Source: Promethearchaeota archaeon
GTDB taxonomy: Archaea > Asgardarchaeota > Lokiarchaeia > Sigyniarchaeales > SOKP01
Assembly (NCBI GenBank): GCA_048940765.1
Contig: JBHLOG010000001.1
Location: forward strand, 6,806 to 70,805
Length of the DNA stretch: 64,000 bases
Direction: 5' to 3'
The first letter of the stretch is position 1. The number at the start of each line of letters is the position of its first letter. The translations under genes were made by a program, and so were the position numbers. Under the pieces are notes generated by a model that was not told the origin of the DNA, ran no database searches, and worked only from the letters and a program-made list of their open reading frames with translations. Below are positions 42,533 to 54,545 of this stretch, in pieces.

Positions 42533-43129
42533 GTGATGAACCAAGAAAACAATAAACAACTCTCTCTTGAAGATATTGAAGTACCAGATAAAATCCCTGC
42601 AAAATTTATAAACAATCGAGTTATTGTTTTCAACCCATTGTATGCTTCATATTTATATGTGAAGAAAGGGTTCTTTGGCTCACCTTTAGGAATTAATAAA
42701 CCCAGATTAGAATACTTTTCTAAACCAAGCGAGCTATCATTAATCGAAGCTTATTATTTACTAGAAAAGGACGAATTAACAATTTTTGATGTAAATGACA
42801 AGAAAAATTTAACACCTAAGGAATTTTATGAGATCGCTAAAAAAAATCATCATAAATTTGAAGAAAAATATGTTATATACAAAGATTTAAGGGATAGAGG
42901 ATACATTCCAAGACCAGGATTAAAATTTGGGGCAGACTTTGTTGTGTATCGTCTTGGTCCGGGACTTGAACATTCTCTTTTTATGGTCCATGTTCTACCT
43001 CATGACTCAGAGATCTCAGCTGTAGACATGGTAAGGGCTGGGCGATTAGCAACATCTGTGAGAAAGAAATTTGTAATCGCCAATCCTCTTACCTGTAGCT
43101 ATTATTTCTTTGAGTGGTTCAAACCATAA
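42533..43129 (+). CDS. endA: tRNA-splicing (BHB) endonuclease
   Basis: YKDLRDRGYIPRPGLKFGADFVVY...HSLFMVHVL catalytic-domain signature. About 198 aa (homotetramer-type size). ATG at 42536 is the likely start. Confidence 0.85.
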   Translation: MMNQENNKQLSLEDIEVPDKIPAKFINNRVIVFNPLYASYLYVKKGFFGSPLGINKPRLEYFSKPSELSLIEAYYLLEKDELTIFDVNDKKNLTPKEFYEIAKKNHHKFEEKYVIYKDLRDRGYIPRPGLKFGADFVVYRLGPGLEHSLFMVHVLPHDSEISAVDMVRAGRLATSVRKKFVIANPLTCSYYFFEWFKP

Positions 43130-43157: not shown

Positions 43158-44981
43158 TTATTTCAGTTTTAAAAATCTTAATTTTTGAATTAAATTGTTC
43201 TTAATTAGTTCAAGATGTTGAAAGTCATTATTCTCAATAGAGTGCCTTAAATTTAAAATTTCATTATAAATATCTTGATCTAGTAAATCTTCAATTAAAA
43301 TTCCTTGATCTATAAGTACTTTCCCTTCATTATAAATTAAAAGAATAATTTTAATCAAACCTAACATTTTTTTAACACTAGTGAAACTATCTATTTTATC
43401 AAATGCATTTTGATTTAAAAAACCATTTTTAATTAATTTCGCAATAAAGAGTATTAATTGTTGATTTTCTGGCAAATTTTTTTCTCCAATCAACTGAATA
43501 ATGTATTTTAGGTCTTGCTCTTTGGATAAAATCTCGTTTAATTGTTCTCGACATTCACTCCAGTCGATATCTATTTCTGGCCAATTAATATCGTTATCGT
43601 ACCACCAATTTTTTATTGATGAAGGATATGTTGAATAAGAATTCATCCAATTTATTGCAGGATAATGTTTTAAATAGGCTAAACTGGAGTCCAAAGCCCA
43701 AAACACTTGTACCAATCTCTTTGTTGTTGCTGTTACTGGTTCGCTAAAATCCCCCCCAGGTGGTGAAATTGTCCCAACAATTGTTAAAGATCCTCTTTTT
43801 TCTTTTCCTTTATAATCTACGCCATTTGTTTTTACAATACCAGCTCTTTCATAAAAACTTGATAGTTTTGAAGATAAATAAGCAGGATACCCTTCTTCTG
43901 CGGGCATTTCCTCTAATAATCCTGAAATTTCTCTTAAAGATTCAGCCCATCTTGATGTACTATCGGCTAAAACAGCAACATCATAACCCATATCTCGATA
44001 ATATTCTGCTATAGTAACTCCAGAAAATAAACTAGCTTCTCTAGCAGAAACAGGCATATTAGAAGTATTAGCTATTAAAATGATATGTTCTAATAAAGGT
44101 CGTCCTGTTTGAGGATTTATTATTTCAGAAAATTGCTTCAGAATATTAGCTATTTCATTCCCTGGTTCTCCACACCCTATATACACACAAACATCTACAT
44201 TACTCCACTTAGCTAAAGATTGTTGTATAACAGTTTTTCCAGTTCCAAATCCTCCTGGTATAGCAACTGTTCCCCCTTTTGCTATTGGAAATAGTAGATC
44301 TATAACGCGAATTCCAGTAATTAATGGTATTGTAGCATCTTCTTTTTTATTATAAGGGCGATTTACTGTCACTGGCCATTTTTGTAACATTGAAAATGAT
44401 TCTTCTGTTGAATTTATTCTCAACCTATAGATCTCATCTAAAATTGTATATTCTCCTTCTTTTGTGATAAATGAAAGAATTCCTGATTTATATGGAGGAA
44501 TCATAATCTTATGTTCTAAAAATGGGGTTTCTTGAACAAAACCAATAACATCTCCACAACTTACTTTTTCATTTAGCTTTTTTAATGGTGTAAAATACCA
44601 TTTTTTAGTTCTAGATAAAGGTGGAATTTTAAAACCTCGGGTTAATCTCCCAGAAGTGGTGTTTTCAAAAACCTTTTCTAATGGTCGCTGTATTCCATCA
44701 AAAACATGGGAGATTAAACCGGGAGCCAATTCCATTGAAAGAGGTTCGTTTAAACTTATAACTTTTTCATTCAATTTTACATTTGTTGTATTTTCAAAAC
44801 ACTGTGCAACGATATGATCAGGATATATTTGGATTACCTCTCCTAAAATCTCATGTTCTGATATTTTTATCAAATCATGAAGACGAATGTATTTTTCTAA
44901 CCCTTTAATTTCTATCAAGGAACCTATAATTGCTGAAATATAACCAGAGTTTATATCAATATTAGGCTCTATTGAATTCAT
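43158..44981 (-). CDS. atpA: A/V-type ATPase catalytic subunit A, second paralog (GER motif changed to GEP)
   Basis: Roughly two-thirds identical by eye to the 49823-51667 copy. Walker A GGFGTGKT is intact. GCGEPGNE (cca) versus GCGERGNE (cga) in copy 1. Confidence 0.85.
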   Translation of the reverse strand: MNSIEPNIDINSGYISAIIGSLIEIKGLEKYIRLHDLIKISEHEILGEVIQIYPDHIVAQCFENTTNVKLNEKVISLNEPLSMELAPGLISHVFDGIQRPLEKVFENTTSGRLTRGFKIPPLSRTKKWYFTPLKKLNEKVSCGDVIGFVQETPFLEHKIMIPPYKSGILSFITKEGEYTILDEIYRLRINSTEESFSMLQKWPVTVNRPYNKKEDATIPLITGIRVIDLLFPIAKGGTVAIPGGFGTGKTVIQQSLAKWSNVDVCVYIGCGEPGNEIANILKQFSEIINPQTGRPLLEHIILIANTSNMPVSAREASLFSGVTIAEYYRDMGYDVAVLADSTSRWAESLREISGLLEEMPAEEGYPAYLSSKLSSFYERAGIVKTNGVDYKGKEKRGSLTIVGTISPPGGDFSEPVTATTKRLVQVFWALDSSLAYLKHYPAINWMNSYSTYPSSIKNWWYDNDINWPEIDIDWSECREQLNEILSKEQDLKYIIQLIGEKNLPENQQLILFIAKLIKNGFLNQNAFDKIDSFTSVKKMLGLIKIILLIYNEGKVLIDQGILIEDLLDQDIYNEILNLRHSIENNDFQHLELIKNNLIQKLRFLKLK

Positions 44982-45005
44982 TTAATTTCTTCTAACCCTC
45001 AGATC

Positions 45006-45494
45006 TTAATATTTTACTTGCGCATTACAAAAAGGACATTTTTTAACGAAATTTGGTATGATATTTCCACAATTTTCACATTTGTTGATTATTGGCTTGC
45101 GATATCTGAAGTCAAGATTAACTGATCTTGGAATTTTGGGCTGAAATTGTCGCATTTCTTCTTCATATTGAGTGGTTATGCTTTTTTTTTGATACTCTGA
45201 TGTAGATTTTCTTTTTCTATTTGGAAACATTCTTGCATAGAGAGATCTTTTATTTTTTCTTAGAAAAGGACTAATTGTAACTAATAAAATAAAAATGAAT
45301 AATAATGTAGTTATGAAAGGATGAATTCCTAGGTGAATTAAAAAAAAATAGAGATAAATCATTATACCTAAATAAATTGCGAATACCACTAACCAGATAA
45401 TAAGCTTTTTCTTAATTCTCCTCCTTTCAATTATTTCATTCGACATAAACAAATCTAATTCTAATAATATTTTATTTTCTCTTAAATTATTCAA
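45006..45494 (-). CDS. membrane protein (2-3 TM) with a C-terminal zinc ribbon, embedded in the ATPase operon
   Basis: CENCGNIIPNFVKKCPFC. Overlaps the atpI stop by 8 nt. Confidence 0.55.
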   Translation of the reverse strand: MNNLRENKILLELDLFMSNEIIERRRIKKKLIIWLVVFAIYLGIMIYLYFFLIHLGIHPFITTLLFIFILLVTISPFLRKNKRSLYARMFPNRKRKSTSEYQKKSITTQYEEEMRQFQPKIPRSVNLDFRYRKPIINKCENCGNIIPNFVKKCPFCNAQVKY

Positions 45495-47775
45495 ATCTTT
45501 GAGTTAGATAATTCTTAGCTTTATCTATCTCTTCCTTTATTGTTTTCATTTCAAACTCTTTTTCAATTTCTTCAGAAATAATATCTTTTTCAGCTACTCT
45601 TTTAAATTTGATATTAGAATAATTATTATCTAAATAGAAGGGAAAATATTCGATACCACCTCCTCGATAGAACTTGAAAAAGAATTCATAGAAATGAAGT
45701 CTTATGGCATTGATAAATGCTAACAAACCTTCTAAGAGGATTATAACTATATTCCCAAATACTGAACCAATAATATTTATTATCTGTACTCCAATATTCT
45801 CCCCTTGGATCAATGTAGACATTGCATTTATGGCATATAACAAAGCAATATGAGCTAATGCTAAAGCTAATATTCGGATATAAGATGCAACATTACTCAT
45901 AACAGATAAGAATGTATCAAATGTTTCAATTGATCCTTCACCTAATAATCCGGTATAAGATTCACTTTTTAAATATGAAATTTTGAGTATTTTTCCGACA
46001 GGTTTCAAAAACCATAAGAGAAGAGCAGGGATTAGAACTAATAAAATTGGATAGGGAAATTTCAACCAACCATATATATCAAATCCAAATCCAAAAATTA
46101 AAATAGTTCCTCCTATTAATAATAGGATTTTTATGAATGAATCACTGAACGCTAAGTATTTTCTATGTTGTTTCCAATAATTTAAAAATTGTATGATCCA
46201 TCCTAAAGTTATATGAAATACTCCAATATATATGGCAAAATAAAATACTGAGAGAATATTACCTAATGGATTATATAATGTAATATTGAGGAAAGGGATT
46301 GTTACTGGTTCCAAGTGGAAGTAAACTGTTCCAAATATCTCGATTTCATGTTTCCCAAAAAATTCTCCGTATAAAAATCCTATAAGTACAGATGCCCATC
46401 CACAAAGAAAGATAATCCAGCTTATATTTATAGCATTTTTACTTTTGTTTTTAAGTACTCTGGTACCAATGAATCCTGCTATAATTAAGATCAAACCATG
46501 CCCAATATCTCCAAACATTAAACCAAAAAGCAATGGAAAAGTGATAGCAATAATAGGAGTAGGATCTATTTCAGAATAAGTAGGAATTCCATACATTTTT
46601 GTGATTGTTTCAAAAGGTCTTACAAGAAAGAAATTTTTCATGATTGTAGGAGTATTTTCTCTTAAATCTTCTTTTCCTTCATCTTTTTTGTTTGATTCAG
46701 TTTCTTCAATGCTTTCTTTTATTATTGGTTTCCCAATCTTTTTTATTAATTTTTCTTTTTCCGGTAAAGATTCATAACTTGGGCGACCTTTTGATACATC
46801 TTGTGCTTCAATTGATATATTTTCTTTAAATATATCAAATAACTTTTGTTTAACTTCTTCTTTTTTTGATAATGGGATGAAAAATTTTAGAAATAATCGA
46901 TTTGAAGGTAATTTTTCAAATTGTTGCTCAACCCAATTATATTCCTCAATGTTTTGAACAATTTCGTTAATACCAGCAAATTTTAAGAGATTTTCTTTAG
47001 TAATTCGATTTTGTTCTTTTTTATATCTTGATATTAAATTTTCAATAAAATTAATTTCCTTATCTATTCTTAAAAAGTTAATTCCCTCACTTGTTAGATA
47101 TTTTTTTAAAATTGGAACTTCTTCGGAATGGATTAAACGAATTCTTCCATTAAATTCATCTTGTTTATCTTTTGGGTAGATTATATAAAAACAGATTCGA
47201 TCATCTGATATTTGAAAAGTTTCATAAACATTAGGGAATTCAGAAAAATCAAAAAGATTTTGCAAATTAGTTAAATTCTTAGAAAATGTTGTAAAAACTC
47301 GTAAATAAAAATGTCTTAGTTTTTGTAAATTTTCAGTGTTTAAATTTATTTTCTTTAAAAATTTATAACTAACTTTTATAGAATTAAGATTATCAACTTC
47401 TATTTTACCTTTCGATATATAAGTATTTAACTCTATAGCCCTATTTGTATAAAAATCTATTTCCTCCAAAAGACTATTTATTAGTTCATGAAAATCTTGA
47501 GTAACAAATTCTACTTTTTCATTTTTTTTAGTTTTTAAATTTTGGAGGTCATATTCACTAATTTCAAGTTTTTTAAATAAATTATTTAAATTTTTTCTCA
47601 AATCTTTAATTTTTTCTCGAAACGGATCTTTTTCTTCTGACCCTTTCTCATATTTGGATTTTTTCTTTGATTTTATATGAACAGCGTTCATATTAGATAA
47701 TTCCATTATAAATTGATCTTTATAATTCTGGTTTATTTCTGCTCTCATCAAACAAAACTCGTCTTTTTTGACCAT
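45487..47775 (-). CDS. atpI: A/V-type ATPase subunit I (a-subunit homolog)
   Basis: 762 aa. Cytoplasmic coiled N-half and a polytopic C-half with the conserved Arg region (ASYIRILALALAH). Confidence 0.85.
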   Translation of the reverse strand: MVKKDEFCLMRAEINQNYKDQFIMELSNMNAVHIKSKKKSKYEKGSEEKDPFREKIKDLRKNLNNLFKKLEISEYDLQNLKTKKNEKVEFVTQDFHELINSLLEEIDFYTNRAIELNTYISKGKIEVDNLNSIKVSYKFLKKINLNTENLQKLRHFYLRVFTTFSKNLTNLQNLFDFSEFPNVYETFQISDDRICFYIIYPKDKQDEFNGRIRLIHSEEVPILKKYLTSEGINFLRIDKEINFIENLISRYKKEQNRITKENLLKFAGINEIVQNIEEYNWVEQQFEKLPSNRLFLKFFIPLSKKEEVKQKLFDIFKENISIEAQDVSKGRPSYESLPEKEKLIKKIGKPIIKESIEETESNKKDEGKEDLRENTPTIMKNFFLVRPFETITKMYGIPTYSEIDPTPIIAITFPLLFGLMFGDIGHGLILIIAGFIGTRVLKNKSKNAINISWIIFLCGWASVLIGFLYGEFFGKHEIEIFGTVYFHLEPVTIPFLNITLYNPLGNILSVFYFAIYIGVFHITLGWIIQFLNYWKQHRKYLAFSDSFIKILLLIGGTILIFGFGFDIYGWLKFPYPILLVLIPALLLWFLKPVGKILKISYLKSESYTGLLGEGSIETFDTFLSVMSNVASYIRILALALAHIALLYAINAMSTLIQGENIGVQIINIIGSVFGNIVIILLEGLLAFINAIRLHFYEFFFKFYRGGGIEYFPFYLDNNYSNIKFKRVAEKDIISEEIEKEFEMKTIKEEIDKAKNYLTQRFE

Positions 47776-47795: not shown

Positions 47796-48344
47796 TTATT
47801 TTTTAATAATTATATCTTTAGTTTTTTTTAATCTAATATAATTCTCTCTCTCAATTTCTTCCAATATTTCTTTAATTTGTTTTATATTCGATTTTAATTT
47901 CGGAATTATTAAATTTTTTAAACCATTTATCCTACGATTAATTTTTTTAAAATTTATGGCATATTTTAATATTAAATCTTCTATTTCAGAAAATTGTATT
48001 AATGAACTAAAGAAATCCTTTAAAGTATAAATTAAATCATCCAGATAATGACTTGTGTTTTCAAATGTATATGCTGGGAGTTTCTCTTCATGAATTAATT
48101 TATATTTAATTTGAGGAAATAGAATTCCTGCCTTCTTCAAGTGAAGTATTTCAATTGTAGGTTTATATTGAATTCTACTTAATTTACTAACTAAAATAAG
48201 TTCATTCTTACCCATCTCTTCATAAGTTAAATAAAGAAGATTCATTGATTCTTTAAATAAAGAGAGAAATTCTTTCCGATAAGAAGCATATTCTTTCCAT
48301 AATTTTCTGAGCTCGAAGATTAATTGTTCTCTTCTAAATTCCAA
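47796..48344 (-). CDS. atpD: A/V-type ATPase subunit D (true N-terminus probably extends to 48434)
   Basis: C-terminal NRRINGLKNLIIPKL...EEIERENYIRLKK. 30 upstream in-frame codons encode the conserved IKPSKINLISLKKRL..A.KG motif. Confidence 0.8.
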   Translation of the reverse strand: MEFRREQLIFELRKLWKEYASYRKEFLSLFKESMNLLYLTYEEMGKNELILVSKLSRIQYKPTIEILHLKKAGILFPQIKYKLIHEEKLPAYTFENTSHYLDDLIYTLKDFFSSLIQFSEIEDLILKYAINFKKINRRINGLKNLIIPKLKSNIKQIKEILEEIERENYIRLKKTKDIIIKK

Positions 48345-48434
48345 AAAGTTTTCTCCTTTATTTGCAAAACTTAATCTTTTTTTTAAAGAAATTAAATTTA
48401 TTTTTGAAGGCTTTATTTCTCTAAAACTTATAAT

Positions 48435-49826
48435 TTACACCTTTACTTGAAAATATTTATCAATAAATTTTTGATGAATCCTAATTAATTGAGTTTGATT
48501 CAAATTAGATAAGACATCCCAGGCAATATTTAATGTATCTTGAAAACTTCTGTTTTCATCTTCTTTTTGATTTAAGAATTTTTGTTCAAAATCATTCCCA
48601 AATTTTAAAATGTTTTTTTGTTCGAAATTCAGACCATCTTCCCCTACAATTGAAATAAGATCTTTAACCTCCATATATTCTGAATAGGAAGCTAATAACT
48701 GCGAACTGACATCCGCATGGTCCTCTCTTGTTTTACCTTTTCCAATCGCATCCTTCATTAATCGAGATATTGAAGCTAAAACTTCAAACGGAGGATAAAT
48801 GCCTTTTTTATGCAACATTCGACTTAGAACTAATTGTCCTTCAGTAATATAACCTGTAGTATCAGGCACTGGATCAGTAATATCATCATTCTTCATTGTA
48901 AGAATTGGAATTTGAGTTATCGAACCTTTTTTTCCTTTGATTTTTCCTGTTCTTTCATAAATAGAGGCAAAATCGGAATAAATGTATCCAGGATAACCTT
49001 TTCTGCTTGGGATTTCTTCCTTCGCAGAACTAAGTTCTCTTAATGCTTCTGCATAATTAGTAATATCAATTAAGATGATAAGAACATGCATATCTTTTTC
49101 AAAAGCAAAATATTCTGCTGTTGTTAAAGCTACTCTGGGAATAATTAATCTTTCAATTATAGGGTCATCTGCAAAATTAATGAAAGAAATAATATTTTGA
49201 AGTGTTCCACTTTCTTGAAAACGGTTCATAAAATAAATTGCCTCATCTTGAATAATTCCAATACCACAAAAAATAATTACAAATGGTTCTTCTGAAGTAA
49301 CTCTTGATTGTGTTGTTATTTGAGCGGCTAACTTATTATGTGGCATTCCTTGTGCACTGAAAATGGGTAATTTTTGACCTCTAATCAAAGTAAACAATCC
49401 ATCAATTACAGATACACCTGTTTGTATAACATCAACCGGATATTCTCTTGCGAAAGGGTTGATAGGGCTTCCATTTATATCTTTCTGAACATCAATTAAA
49501 ATATCTGAATCTAAAATTGCTTTTGTTTTAATATCAATTGGAGCACCTAGTGAATTGAATGTCTGACCAAACATATCTTTTGAAATCTTTACCTTAAAAG
49601 TATCTTCAGTAAATGTTATTTCTGCATTTTCAGAGGATATACCAGTTGTATCTTCAAATACTTCAACAACAATTATATCCTCACTTAGTTTCACCACTTG
49701 CCCAGTACGCATCTTATTATCATCTGTTTTAACTTTCACAATCTCGCCATACTGGGCATCATGATCGTTTTTAAGAAATAAAAGTGGTCCAATGATTTGT
49801 TGAATTTTTTTATATATCACACTCAT
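48435..49826 (-). CDS. atpB: A/V-type ATPase subunit B
   Basis: 463 aa. The degenerate P-loop region and [18 protein letters not shown] motifs are typical of B subunits. ATGA overlap with atpA. Confidence 0.9.
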
Positions 49827-51667
49827 GATTTTTTAAATATTTCATGTGTTAATTTTAAGGATGCAATTTCTTTAAGAAATTTTTTTTTTAACTCTTCTAT
49901 TTTAACAAAATCTTTATTTGGAATAGTTTGTTTAATTCTTAAAATATTATTTATAGCTTTAAGGCTCTTAATATCTTCAATTAGAAATCCTTGTTTCAAT
50001 AATTCATTACCTTCTTTATACACTAGAAGAATTATCTTAATCATTCCTAAAAGCTTTTTAAAATCTGTATAATTATCTATATCATCAAATGCATTTTGGA
50101 TTAAAAATCCGTCTTTAATTAATCTTGCAATAAATATTGTTAATTGCTGGTCTTCTGGGAGATTTTCCTCACCAATAAGTTGTGTAATGTATTTTAATTC
50201 GTTTTCTTGGGAGAGAATTTCATTAACTTGCATTCGACAATCGAACCAATCAATATCCATTTCTGACCAATGAATATCTCTTTCTAACCACCACTCTGAT
50301 ATATAATCGGGGTAATTAGAATATGAATTCAACCAATTAATAGCTGGATAATGTTTTGAATATGCTAATCCTGCATCTAAAGCCCAAATCCCTTGAACAA
50401 AATTTTTTGTTGTCGCTGTTACCGGCTCGCTAAAGTCGCCAGCAGGAGGAGAAATTGAGCCAATTATTGTTAAAGATCCAATTCTATCTTTTCCAGATTC
50501 ATCTTTACCAATTAATTTAACGTTACCTGCTCTTTCGTAAAAACCAGATAGTTTAGACGGTAAATATGCGGGATATCCCTCTTCAGCTGGCATTTCTTCC
50601 AATAGTCCAGAGATTTCCCTTAAAGATTCAGCCCATCTTGAGGTACTATCCGCTAAAACCGCAACATCATAACCCATATCCCTGTAATATTCAGCGATAG
50701 TAACTCCTGAAAATATACTAGCTTCTCTTGCTGAAACTGGCATATTAGAAGTATTTGCAATTAAAATTATTCGGTCTAATAAAGATTGACCAGTTCTAGG
50801 ATCATTTAACTCTGAAAATTGCTTCAAAACATCAGCAATCTCATTTCCTCGTTCTCCGCACCCCACAAATACAATTATATCCGCATCACACCACTTCGCC
50901 AGAGATTGCTGGATTACTGTCTTACCGGTTCCAAATCCTCCTGGAACTCCAATTGTACCTCCTTTTGTGATTGGAAAAAGTAAATCTATTACTCTTATTC
51001 CTGTTATTAATGGTTCATTGGAAATATTTCTCTCTTTAAATGGTCGAGCTTTAGTTACTGGCCATTTTTGTAACATCGAAAATGAATGTTCCCGATTATT
51101 TATATTCAATTTATAAATTGTATCATTAACAATATAATCCCCCTCATCTACTATATAAGTTAATTTCCCTGCAATGTTTGGGGGAACCATTATTTTATGT
51201 TCTATTGATGGAGTCTCTTGAACAGTTCCAATTATATCTCCTCCAGTCACTATATCATCCTTCTTTTTCTTAGGAATAAAATGCCATTTCTTCGTTCTTG
51301 ATATAGAATCGATTTCTAATCCTCTTTCTAAGGCTCCATTCTTAAAAAGGTCAAATGCTCTTTGAAGGGGTCGTTGGATTCCATCAAAAATATTTCCTAA
51401 TAGTCCTGGGGCTAATTCCATTGAAAGAGGTTCATTTAAGCTGATAACTGTTTCTTTAATCCGTAAATTATTAGTATTTTCAAAGCATTGCGCAACTATA
51501 AAATCTTCATAGATCTGAATTACCTCTCCTAAAATCTTATGTTTAGTAATTTGAATTAAATCATGGAGTTTAATAGTATCTTCAAGCCCTTTAATGTTAA
51601 TTAAAGAACCATTTATACTCGAAATATAACCAAATTGGGAAGTGGTTTCAGAACTGAATTTGCTCAT
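49823..51667 (-). CDS. atpA: A/V-type ATPase catalytic subunit A
   Basis: GGFGTGKT Walker A, GCGERGNE, non-homologous insert region, 614 aa. Confidence 0.92.
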
Positions 51668-52292
51668 ATAATCTTAAATACTCAGGTATTTTTTCTTTTT
51701 GATTTTGTATAAAATTTTCAAATTCCTTTTCTATTTTTTTAATTTCCGAATCATTTATAATTTTGGATATCTCCATTTGAACAAATGAAGAATTCTTATC
51801 TATTAAATTATCTATTGTATAATCATAAAAAATATTCCCCCCTACTAGTGATATCTTAAAACCACCAATGAATTCATGTTTATCTTGATTTATTTCAATG
51901 GTATTCTTAAAAATCCCTGATATATTATCGAAATTTTTAATAAAATATTTATAATCAATAGAATTAAATATTAATTCTATTCCTTGAGGTTTATCGATAT
52001 CGTTTTTAATTTTCTTTATCGATTCTAACAAGAAATTAATATATATATTATAGTTATTTTCAATTTTATCTTTGATAATATGAAGTAGCTTTATTCTGAG
52101 TTCTTTTATTAATCTATCTTTTGTTTTTAAAAATTTTTCTTTTCCCTTTAAAATTGTTGATGTTAATGATTGATTTAAATATAACATAAAACTTTCAATA
52201 AGATGGTTTTTTAATTTCATAGATCTTTCGCGACTTCTTTCTAAAAATCTGTTTTTAATTTCAGCTTTTTGAAATAAGGTTTTTTGATTCAA
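51648..52292 (-). CDS. atpE: A/V-type ATPase subunit E (peripheral stalk)
   Basis: Long N-terminal helix and a C-terminal globular GGFKISLVGGNIFYDYTIDNL motif. TTG start, or an upstream non-canonical start. Confidence 0.65.
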   Translation of the reverse strand: MNQKTLFQKAEIKNRFLERSRERSMKLKNHLIESFMLYLNQSLTSTILKGKEKFLKTKDRLIKELRIKLLHIIKDKIENNYNIYINFLLESIKKIKNDIDKPQGIELIFNSIDYKYFIKNFDNISGIFKNTIEINQDKHEFIGGFKISLVGGNIFYDYTIDNLIDKNSSFVQMEISKIINDSEIKKIEKEFENFIQNQKEKIPEYLRLYEQIQF

Positions 52293-52387
52293 ATCTTTGA
52301 TTTCTTTTTCAGCTTTTTCTATTAAATAAAAACCTAAATTGCCGATCTGTTTTTTTATTTCTTTATCTTCTGAAATTTCGACTCACC

Positions 52388-52717
52388 TTACTTTATTAAA
52401 ATTATACTACCTATTGCATCAATTATTTTATTTAATATGATATCATAATCTTCAATCTTTGGTTGAAAAATGTCTGGGAGAATAAAAATAAAGGGAATTC
52501 TAGTATTTTCTTTAAAATCCAATAAAAAATCTATAGTTCCACTTGATAAAGGTAATGCAACAATTATCATACCTATTGAGGGATTATTTGTTAGTTCTGT
52601 AAACTTTTTTAGGAATTCTTCTTCGTTCTCCACAATGGTCGCCTCTAATCCTAAAAGTCCTAGCATAGAAACTAGCTCCTTCTCACCTAAAATATGAATT
52701 TTTTGAGTTGCCATCAA
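52388..52717 (-). CDS. atpF: A/V-type ATPase subunit F
   Basis: 109 aa. KIHILGEKELVSMLGLLGLE is typical of subunit F. Confidence 0.75.
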   Translation of the reverse strand: MMATQKIHILGEKELVSMLGLLGLEATIVENEEEFLKKFTELTNNPSIGMIIVALPLSSGTIDFLLDFKENTRIPFIFILPDIFQPKIEDYDIILNKIIDAIGSIILIK

Positions 52718-53025
52718 AAGTCAATCCCTAATTTTTTGATAATTATTTTTTGTAATTTTGGTAGATTTTTTCTAAATCCCACTTCAATATTTTTAAGAGC
52801 TTCATCTAAGCTTTTTTCAAAAGTATTAGTCTGCGTGTCAATAGCTACTGCTAAATTACCCAAAGCAGTATTCACGAGAACATTTATTGTAGTAACAAAA
52901 TTTTCAAATTTATTATCTTGTTCTTGTCTAAAATCTTCAATTTCCTTTAAATTGACATTTTTAGAACTATCTATTAAATCTTCATAAACTTTTTGAATTT
53001 CTTCTATCCATTCGAATGTATCCAT
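52714..53025 (-). CDS. small helical protein in the ATPase operon (possible subunit H/G-type stalk component)
   Basis: 103 aa, helical. 4-nt overlap with atpF. Assignment is by position only. Confidence 0.35.
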   Translation of the reverse strand: MDTFEWIEEIQKVYEDLIDSSKNVNLKEIEDFRQEQDNKFENFVTTINVLVNTALGNLAVAIDTQTNTFEKSLDEALKNIEVGFRKNLPKLQKIIIKKLGIDF

Positions 53026-53072
53026 TATCTAACCGAATTATTATTAATTTTCATTTAATCTTTATAATTTTT

Positions 53073-54056
53073 TTATTTTAATCTTTTATATTTTTCATGA
53101 AGAATCTCAACTACTTTTGGCAAAATATATAAATGTATTTCTTTATCTTTCTTAATTAACACTTCAAGAATCTTAAAAATTGCCTGATAATCAATATTTT
53201 CAATGTGGATTACTAATCTGTTGAAAAAATGTTTTAAATATAACTTTTCAATTGACCATAATAAATGATCTTTATCAAGGCTAAACTTTAATAAAAGCGG
53301 TCTAGTTTCTTTTGTTTGGGTAAAATGTTGATTGATATTTAATATAAAATCATTAACATCTGTGAGATCCAATAAATTCAAAATATCATATTTAGTAAAA
53401 AATAGATAAGTGTTGACTAAAAATTGTGATAATAATTTTTTCTCAATATTATTTTTAATTCCTCTATGTATCAAATTTAAATTATAAATCTCTGAGATAT
53501 ACTTCAAATATAATGAAATTATATTTCTTTCTGTTGTAGATAATTTACTTATTTCCTTATTCAAATTTTCATAATAAAATTGATCTAGAAAAGCCTCTAA
53601 TACAAATATTTCATTTGTATTTTTAAAGTAAAGGATTCCTTCTCTTATTGCTCTGTTATATTTTGTTGTTTTCATACGAAGTTGTATTTGATCTAAAGAG
53701 GGAGCTTCAATCAATTCATCTATAAATTCAATATTATCCAAATATTTTTCTACTAATTTATTAACTAATATTGATTTATCTGGAATGCTCATACTTAGTA
53801 TAGTACCAAGAATAATGCGTTTAATATTCGTTATTTCATATTTAATTAAATAATTCTTTAAAAAAATACGCATATTCCTGGGAGAAATATAAAGAATCTT
53901 TCCAATCAATTTAATATAAGTATGAAACAATTGTTTTTCAATTTCTTCTATTGTATAAGAACTAACACTAAATCCTGGATAATATTTGCTTATAATTTCA
54001 GTCAGTTGTTTAATTTCGTTTATTTCCTCTAACTTTTTCAGAGTAACTTCATCCAT
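53073..54056 (-). CDS. atpC: A/V-type ATPase subunit C (d-subunit homolog); N-terminus probably extends upstream
   Basis: All-helical 327 aa in operon position. Upstream in-frame codons encode the NYAYTLIR motif (Y-x-Y-x-x-x-R) typical of the subunit C N-terminus. Confidence 0.65.
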   Translation of the reverse strand: MDEVTLKKLEEINEIKQLTEIISKYYPGFSVSSYTIEEIEKQLFHTYIKLIGKILYISPRNMRIFLKNYLIKYEITNIKRIILGTILSMSIPDKSILVNKLVEKYLDNIEFIDELIEAPSLDQIQLRMKTTKYNRAIREGILYFKNTNEIFVLEAFLDQFYYENLNKEISKLSTTERNIISLYLKYISEIYNLNLIHRGIKNNIEKKLLSQFLVNTYLFFTKYDILNLLDLTDVNDFILNINQHFTQTKETRPLLLKFSLDKDHLLWSIEKLYLKHFFNRLVIHIENIDYQAIFKILEVLIKKDKEIHLYILPKVVEILHEKYKRLK

Positions 54057-54179
54057 TATTAATTGCTTTAAAAAACCAATTCGGATAAGTGTATAGGCAT
54101 AATTATCGACAATTACACTACTCGTTATATATTCACCAATGATTGTGCTTTAACTTGGGATAAATCTTTAAGAAACTGA

Positions 54180-54545
54180 TCAAACAGGAGTGGGTATTTT
54201 CGTCCAAAGTAAGATTGCTATTATTAATCCATAGACTGCTAAGGCTTCACATAATACAACTACGAGAAATGCTTTAAAAAAGGCTTCTTCTCTTTCTGAG
54301 AGTGCGCTTATTGCTGCAGTTCCAACGGTCTTAATTGCTAAAGCACTCCCTAATACAGAAGCACCAACTGAAAGCGCTACTGCAATCGCTAAAGCAGCAG
54401 TAGTAATTGAAGCATAAGCTTCGTTAGTCGTAGGAGCCTGAGCAGCTACAAAAGCTACAATTCCATTCGATGTGAAAATTACTAGAATTATCAAGAAAAC
54501 TTGAAATATTGCAAGCAATAAAAAAAATTTTTGTTTACCATTCAT
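54180..54545 (-). CDS. atpK: A/V-type ATPase proteolipid subunit K (c) with an N-terminal extra hydrophobic segment
   Basis: Gly/Ala-rich helix and the ion-binding Glu in LCEALAVYGL. Confidence 0.8.
   Translation of the reverse strand: MNGKQKFFLLLAIFQVFLIILVIFTSNGIVAFVAAQAPTTNEAYASITTAALAIAVALSVGASVLGSALAIKTVGTAAISALSEREEAFFKAFLVVVLCEALAVYGLIIAILLWTKIPTPV

Follow-up and report, generated by a model that had tools for sequence, protein, structure and literature searches.

What is a second copy of a catalytic subunit doing at the end of an ATP synthase operon, when its active site has lost one particular arginine? The question is raised by a 64,000-nucleotide stretch of DNA from a Promethearchaeota archaeon (Lokiarchaeia; GenBank assembly GCA_048940765.1, contig JBHLOG010000001.1, positions 6,806 to 70,805), here called the window. 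Its minus strand carries a complete A-type ATPase operon in the order K-C-(103 aa)-F-E-A-B-D-I-X-A2, where X is a membrane zinc-ribbon protein and A2 is the second A subunit; the open reading frames agree with the order given in a preliminary description made from the nucleotide sequence alone. The heads of rotary ATPases are described as containing three catalytic and three non-catalytic subunits, both kinds of which predate the last universal common ancestor. The explanation that we lean towards, by a modest degree and on comparative grounds, is that A2 is a selectively maintained, pseudo-catalytic paralog of subunit A that co-assembles with A and B in the head. A full-text literature search returned no description of this paralog and, as far as that search shows, a third, arginine-less head-type subunit has not previously been described.

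The arginine lost from A2

The A2 gene, its motifs and the two canonical head genes are located as follows:

43158-44981, minus strand: A2, 607 amino acids (aa), last gene of the operon (open reading frame, Pfam domains, identity to A, orthologues)
44163-44165, minus strand: Pro273 codon CCA of A2, in place of the invariant GER-loop Arg; the motif GEPGNE spans 44154-44171
44232-44255, minus strand: intact Walker A motif (P-loop) GGFGTGKT of A2
43944-43982, minus strand: Walker B region of A2, including DVAVLAD(S), identical to A
43716-43718, minus strand: Arg422 of A2, the ancestral, universally invariant residue, kept
43458-43487, minus strand: rotor-contact (DELSEED-equivalent) loop GEKNLPENQQ of A2, with the charge reversal E501K
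49823-51667, minus strand: canonical atpA, 614 aa, with GER (Arg273 = CGA at 50849-50851) and Asn422 at 50402-50404
48435-49826, minus strand: atpB, the only non-catalytic B subunit of the genome (Pfam, genome-wide PF00006 search)

A2 matches PF02874, PF16886, PF00006 and PF22919, each above cut-off, and has the architecture of an N-terminal beta-barrel, a barrel-sandwich bulge insertion, an alpha/beta nucleotide-binding domain and a V/A C-terminal domain. An ungapped alignment of 594 aa gives 67% identity to canonical A, and A2 matches the Pyrococcus horikoshii A subunit with E = 4e-181. The preliminary description, in which A2 was a full-length, close paralog of A with an identical block, is upheld by these results. 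Within that block, 35 aa long, 15 of 108 nucleotides nevertheless differ between the two genes, so A2 is not an assembly echo of A. The Walker A motif had also been called intact, and this reading stands; like Walker B, the motif is kept in the A2 orthologues inspected, with GKS in two copies from genus g17. Besides the P-loop, A2 retains Glu272, Walker B, R344 and the adenine-stacking Tyr440. The GER loop reads GCGEPGNE in A2 (CCA) and GCGERGNE in A (CGA). Both codons were read directly and agree with the reported change of GER to GEP, while the Pro codon, previously placed at about 44178-44180, lies roughly 15 nucleotides from there.

By its domains, Walker A and Walker B, A2 is an A subunit; by the GER loop it is not, as Glu272 is present and the Arg is Pro273 in every A2. 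Nor does A2 qualify as a non-catalytic B subunit, because its P-loop is perfect and it groups with A. It shares about 30% identity with B, as against 59-81% with canonical A from its own genome, and its place in the tree is among A sequences. Three genes of the alpha/beta family (PF00006) are found in the whole host genome, namely A, B and A2; this search revealed no second B subunit, as had been stated before, and the sole B gene adjoins canonical A, not A2. In comparison with canonical A subunits of known structure (P. horikoshii 1VDZ/3M4Y, Thermus thermophilus 3W3A, Enterococcus hirae 3VR2), A2 has the same four-domain architecture and length (E down to 1e-181), and it conserves the P-loop, catalytic Glu, Walker B and adenine-stacking aromatic residue. 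It differs from canonical A in having Pro for the GER Arg and usually Lys for the acidic first residue of the DELSEED-equivalent loop. It also has no adjacent B gene of its own, being encoded after atpI and X or as a stand-alone gene.

Pro273 corresponds to R264 in P. horikoshii (by offset) and to R262 in E. hirae (by motif equivalence and derived offsets). In Escherichia coli F1 the residue following the catalytic Glu-181 is beta-Arg182, which we take to be homologous on the grounds of motif equivalence. The Arg after the catalytic Glu had been said to contact the gamma-phosphate, and the published data bear this out: A-R262 of E. hirae V1 is among the residues that bind ATP and touches its terminal phosphate (PMC6371843, PMC9336149), while E. 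coli beta-R182Q and R182K give no ATP synthesis and low ATPase activity, with binding of inorganic phosphate (Pi) abolished (PMC3268026). R182Q additionally abolishes transition-state formation, and MgADP binding is unaffected in the R182 mutants (PMC3268026). From these F1 and V1 data, A2 is expected to bind nucleotide without useful turnover. The homologous Arg has thus been removed in A2 and in the laboratory mutants, which keep MgADP binding and lose Pi binding and synthesis; however, those mutants were engineered, whereas A2 is natural and has long been maintained alongside a wild-type copy. Hybrid F1 motors with one or two defective beta subunits are a further laboratory counterpart.

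A2 also shares a logic with the non-catalytic subunits B (A/V-type) and alpha (F-type), each a P-loop paralog that arose by duplication followed by loss of catalysis (PMC10656485; bioRxiv 10.64898/2026.10.01.756066), although in A2 the loss of turnover is inferred. In contrast to B and alpha, A2 is a young, family-level duplicate of A that groups with A, not B, and exists in addition to B. Moreover, its P-loop is intact where that of B is degenerate; A2 has lost the Arg instead of the P-loop or the Glu.

Distribution, selection and origin

The occurrence of GEP copies was surveyed in 400 Asgard genomes, 135 from the window's Lokiarchaeia family (f1) and 265 others, with a DNA pattern for CGEPGNE; a control pattern was essentially silent. 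Matches were found in 80 of the 400 genomes, all of them in the family and spread over seven genera, while the pattern search gave no GEP copy in the 265 Asgard genomes outside it. One further family genome has the variant CCGEPGSE, which brings A2 to at least 81 of the 135. All four Pro codons (CCA, CCT, CCG and CCC) are in use across the 80 genomes, and no internal stop was seen among the matches listed. Almost all of 24 other species of the window's genus have A, B and a second A, and each second copy carries GEP. A word-targeted search of 5.8 billion proteins yielded 101 distinct GEP clusters; most of the named clusters are labelled 'V-type ATP synthase subunit A' and stem from Lokiarchaeia-type metagenome-assembled genomes (MAGs) or marine sediment. 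The R273P change is found in every A2 examined (33 in the final tree and the 101 database clusters), while about 100 diverse A subunits from bacteria and archaea all have GCGERGNE.

For nine close species pairs, the ratio of nonsynonymous to synonymous divergence (dN/dS, Nei-Gojobori) is 0.10-0.28 for A2 (median about 0.13) and 0.085-0.125 for A (about 0.11). Together, conservation across genomes, codon variation and dN/dS indicate that A2 is a functional protein and that its Pro is maintained by selection. It had been proposed earlier that absence of A2 from all relatives, or lack of expression, would suggest a recent neutral duplication; the survey ran the opposite way, as A2 proved to be widespread, with purifying selection acting on it.

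All A2 sequences of the genus fall into a single clade (SH-like approximate likelihood-ratio support 99) with a branching order that mirrors that of A. In the unconstrained family-wide tree A2 falls into three groups, and the A2 of genus g12 stands next to its own A. A single A2 clade is, however, not rejected (approximately unbiased (AU) test, p = 0.33 and 0.35). The g12 A2 is 81% identical to its own A, compared with 59-70% elsewhere, and this similarity is uniform along the gene rather than mosaic; it also carries the other A2 signatures L318, L437, K501 and H299. Independent origins of GEP are disfavoured, since the AU test allows one clade and the g12 A2 has the remaining A2 signatures. 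For the same reasons we prefer one origin, followed in g12 by homogenisation or slow divergence, and favour a single duplication of A near the base of one Lokiarchaeia family.

Among the columns that are universally conserved in A subunits, 129 of 151 are kept in A2, and R273P is the only universally invariant column that has changed in every A2. Ratios of A2 to A divergence are 1.11 for the N-terminal barrel, 0.96 for the bulge, 1.38 for the nucleotide-binding domain, 1.28 for the C-terminal domain and 1.43 for the tail. A sliding entropy scan places the excess variability of A2 at 253-262 (the helix after the P-loop) and 284-297 (the loop after the GER helix), both of which flank the GER loop in sequence, and at 450-460, 493-509 and the C-terminal tail. 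If the very end of the tail is left aside, the excess is highest at 493-509, the DELSEED-equivalent loop. Residues 501-507 of A2 align residue for residue with 480-DSLSDND-486 of E. hirae, the counterpart of the F1 DELSEED rotor-contact loop (PMC3772951). An acidic residue (Asp or Glu) occupies position 501 in 79 of 80 diverse A subunits and likewise in 21 of 22 taken from the genus and its closest MAG relatives; among the A2 of the genus, 17 of 18 have Lys or Arg there, and a few A2 in other parts of the family depart from this. Most A2 therefore lack the acidic, constrained loop that marks an A subunit. At D279, on the same helix and six residues beyond the lost Arg, A2 usually has Asn. A basic residue specific to A2 that might compensate was not found near the GER motif in the sequence, and no new A2-specific conserved surface patch stands out in the entropy scan. 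By these measures, constraint is relaxed around the catalytic pocket and the torque loop and unchanged on the assembly surfaces.

A probable place for A2 in the rotary head, and the alternatives

How might such a subunit act? Since A2 retains the complete A fold together with its P-loop, Walker B, catalytic Glu and adenine-stacking aromatic residue, it should still bind nucleotide, and it should bind MgADP better than MgATP. With the GER Arg, a ligand of the gamma-phosphate and Pi, gone, the A2 site would neither synthesise nor usefully hydrolyse ATP. Its rotor-contact loop is relaxed and usually charge-reversed, as would be expected if torque transmission were no longer needed. B, D and F each occur once, and the crown and bulge of A2 are conserved as in A; A2 therefore most likely occupies an A position beside B in an A3B3-type head. 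Nucleotide binding, loss of turnover and co-assembly are what we infer from these features, and the earlier suggestion that A2 may be catalytically impaired or regulatory is the best reading of a genuine paralog in which the phosphate-binding Arg has specifically been lost. In heads with A2 the number of working sites would fall below three. Hydrolysis by such heads would be throttled, while their remaining sites could still synthesise ATP at a higher ion/ATP ratio. It may be speculated that resistance of A2 heads to ATP hydrolysis and a raised ion/ATP ratio would be useful in energy-limited sediments.

A change in canonical A bears on whether the two proteins work together. Of 80 other A subunits, all 80 have Arg at position 422, and so has every A2 examined. 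In canonical A the residue is Asn (or Ser) in the core of the window's genus, the window included, and His in genus g12. The A subunits examined from the sister families and outgroups keep R422, as do those of four genomes of the window's family (G012, G098, G080 and G152) that have no A2 after X and no GEP match, and loss of R422 in canonical A, to Asn, Ser or His, is seen only in lineages carrying A2. This restriction hints that A and A2 work together. The pattern fits a complementary degeneration of two subunits within one complex, which is suggestive only. Position 104 was considered as a second reciprocal loss in A and rejected, since the same change occurs in some genomes without A2. A possible parallel is offered by the fungal V-ATPase proteolipid-ring paralogs Vma3, Vma11 and Vma16, which reportedly became mutually dependent through complementary losses; here, A2 has lost R273 and the acidic residue 501, and the canonical A of g1 and g12 has lost R422. 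The likeness to the fungal case ends with the two independent R422 losses and the many A2-bearing genomes with R422 in both copies.

Several observations weigh against a pseudo-catalytic A2 in the head. The R422 losses just described are only two events, and many A2-bearing genomes retain the residue in both subunits. About 40% of the genomes of the family are without detectable A2, among them the four named above, in which the GEP search was genome-wide; A2 is dispensable in some lineages. A relic of A2 was sought in G012 and none was found, an unrelated 335-aa gene occupying the gap. The A2 gene of genus g17 stands alone at a distance from the operon, and this weakens the case built on co-transcription. 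'Dead' may also be too strong a word for A2, given that F1 catalytic-site alanine mutants still rotate, 10^3-10^4 times more slowly (PMC5380711).

Some of these points would suit a protein that acts outside the rotary head, as a free nucleotide-binding protein. It might, for instance, serve B or the stalks as an assembly chaperone or place-holder, sense the energy charge, or cap and seal detached membrane sectors. The stand-alone A2 of g17, which keeps GEP, and the dispensability of A2 in several lineages are in line with such a role, as is the fact that constraint on A2 is lowest in its rotor-contact loop and C-terminal tail. However, the N-terminal crown and bulge of A2 evolve as slowly as those of A, and in A subunits these regions form the collar of the head, near the attachment of the stalks. 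The retention of 129 universal A columns and the lack of a prominent new A2-specific conserved surface patch likewise argue for a place in the head, and no A subunit is known to act on its own. We therefore regard a role outside the head as unlikely. A2 might instead be a working catalytic isoform, slower or differently regulated, for which the P-loop Lys, the Arg finger of B and R344 suffice. The intact P-loop, catalytic Glu, Walker B and R344 equivalent, together with strong purifying selection, speak for it, as does the tolerance of rotary catalysis for single catalytic-site mutations, at the cost in rate mentioned above. Set against it are the abolition of synthesis and Pi binding by the homologous beta-R182K/Q changes (PMC3268026), the invariance of the Arg in about 100 other A subunits, and the relaxed constraint around the pocket and in the torque loop; moreover, Pro supplies no charge and no A2-specific basic residue near the motif in sequence compensates for it. 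On balance a working isoform seems quite improbable to us. That A2 is a neutral or decaying duplicate, or an artefact of assembly or sequencing, might be supposed because the window comes from a fragmented MAG. The same change, however, recurs in 80 genomes that were assembled independently and in 101 protein clusters, and the Pro codon varies synonymously; the listed matches are free of internal stops; A2 has a dN/dS of about 0.13; and the identical 35-aa block contains 15 synonymous differences. By these comparisons the duplicate or artefact reading is effectively refuted, and we give it almost no credence.

The pseudo-catalytic A2 in the head, which we prefer, admits a bolder version. The family could be midway to a three-paralog head (A, A2 and B) in which A and A2 are becoming mutually dependent through complementary losses. 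A2 would then hold a fixed, non-working position, and the head would act as a one-way latch or gear change, blocking wasteful hydrolysis and, with a raised ion/ATP ratio, still allowing ATP synthesis where the ion-motive force is very low, as in energy-starved sediments. We consider this version a long shot.

As a natural, long-maintained third head-type subunit minus one specific catalytic arginine, A2 would, if the preferred reading is true, represent a new way to regulate or re-gear an ATP synthase and a live example of a catalytic subunit turning non-catalytic, and it would be directly testable with recombinant proteins. Lokiarchaeia, closely related to eukaryotes, make their living near the thermodynamic limit, and A2 therefore bears on their energy conservation. 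In addition, the functionally named database copies of A2 are all annotated as an ordinary 'V-type ATP synthase subunit A', which can mislead metabolic reconstructions. A published survey reported one Loki MAG with both an A-type and a eukaryote-like V-type ATPase (PMC7997004); two A paralogs may underlie that call of a second ATPase.

The zinc-ribbon protein X and the neighbouring genes

The remaining genes of the operon, with the basis of each assignment, are:

54180-54545, minus strand: K (assigned by synteny, size and position only)
53073-54056, minus strand: C (Pfam match)
52714-53025, minus strand: 103-aa H/G-like stalk protein (assigned by synteny, size and position only)
52388-52717, minus strand: F (Pfam match)
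51648-52292, minus strand: E (assigned by synteny, size and position only)
51648-54545, minus strand: the upstream operon block from E to K as a whole (open reading frames)
47796-48344, minus strand: atpD (PF01813), with an N-terminus that probably reaches upstream of the TTG
45487-47775, minus strand: atpI, subunit I/a (PF01496), with its stop at 45487-45489
45006-45446, minus strand: X, membrane zinc-ribbon protein of 146 aa (orthologue alignment), with the zinc ribbon at 45027-45080

X had been described as a protein of 162 aa that overlaps the atpI stop by 8 nucleotides and is therefore co-translated with the operon. The TTG frame behind that length is merely the longest open frame, and its start is unsupported by orthologues: in their alignment there is no conservation upstream of the ATG at 45446, which gives 146 aa, and most gene calls for X in other records, at 139-146 aa, fit this ATG. 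The spacer from the atpI stop to the X start is then about 40 nucleotides, and the argument for co-translation, which rests on the TTG start, falls away. X consists of a basic N-terminus, a two-helix transmembrane hairpin, a conserved RSLYSRMFP segment, a basic disordered linker and a C-terminal zinc ribbon. Its C-terminus has the pattern NL.F.YRKP..KC.NCG...P.F.K.CP.C (CxxC-x10-CxxC), in which Cys123, 126, 137 and 140 are invariant. In an AlphaFold2 model the confidence (pLDDT) is about 90 for the hairpin and about 82 for the ribbon. All 38 homologues of X are without a functional name; the named sources are Asgard MAGs (Lokiarchaeia, Promethearchaeota and one labelled Hodarchaeota). Zn_Ribbon_1 matches X below threshold in 37 of 39 members. 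Homology of X to a known ATPase accessory was considered and rejected, with no Pfam match at threshold, even at E = 10, and only generic zinc-ribbon matches.

Is X the partner of A2, as the coupling of the two in the preliminary description implied? In all family genomes examined X is the gene after atpI, with or without A2 behind it. It stands there without A2 in the four genomes named above (G012, G098, G080 and G152) and likewise in G068, the A2 of which lies elsewhere; the g17 A2, conversely, stands alone. An X-like open reading frame is found after atpI in one sister-family genome and before K in another, and the synteny is seen in families f1 and f2. From its position after atpI irrespective of A2, X is a Lokiarchaeia ATPase operon accessory of this order and not a partner specific to A2, and the proposed coupling is not borne out. 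I, X and A2 do remain together in the split operon of one genome (G006). Loci of the X family outside the window include L053:4261-4683 and L052:12875-13345, and some members from genus g22 have a second C-terminal zinc ribbon.

The stand-alone A2 genes of g17 (L157:9072-10925 and L158:1154-3031) adjoin an alpha/beta-hydrolase and a GH3 glycosidase, in a neighbourhood common to the two species. They read CCGEPGNE, with GKS in the P-loop, and evolve faster, with 65% identity between the two species.

The host genome comprises 4.0 Mb in 280 contigs with a GC content of about 29%, and its relatives are named as Promethearchaeota or Lokiarchaeia MAGs. A conserved ribosome-binding site was not found upstream of A2, where G-rich motifs are irregular and not conserved, and promoter and terminator scans gave matches no more often than chance. 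For atpD, atpE and atpC of relatives, stop-to-stop frames are about 30 codons longer than those counted from the first ATG, GTG or TTG (in the window, 47796-48434, 51648-52385 and 53073-54149); the atpD frames of relatives amount to 211-249 aa, as against 182 from the first such start. A 198-aa gene on the plus strand (42533-43129) converges on A2 and is found at the same place in most relatives; its GADFVVY...H...K pattern looks, by eye, like that of a tRNA-splicing endonuclease.

Two other genomes differ in the layout of their ATPase genes. In G006, a single-contig assembly (L045, L046), the operon is split, with E'-A-B-D at about 2.19 Mb and I-X-A2-EndA at about 3.06 Mb; the A-B-D locus as fetched is without K, C, H and F, and the split is either a real rearrangement or a MAG mis-join. 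In G031, from the sister family f4 (L047, L048), two A-B-D sets lie on different contigs, both with GER; their A copies are about 48-57% identical to the window's A and represent a second complete ATPase or bin contamination.

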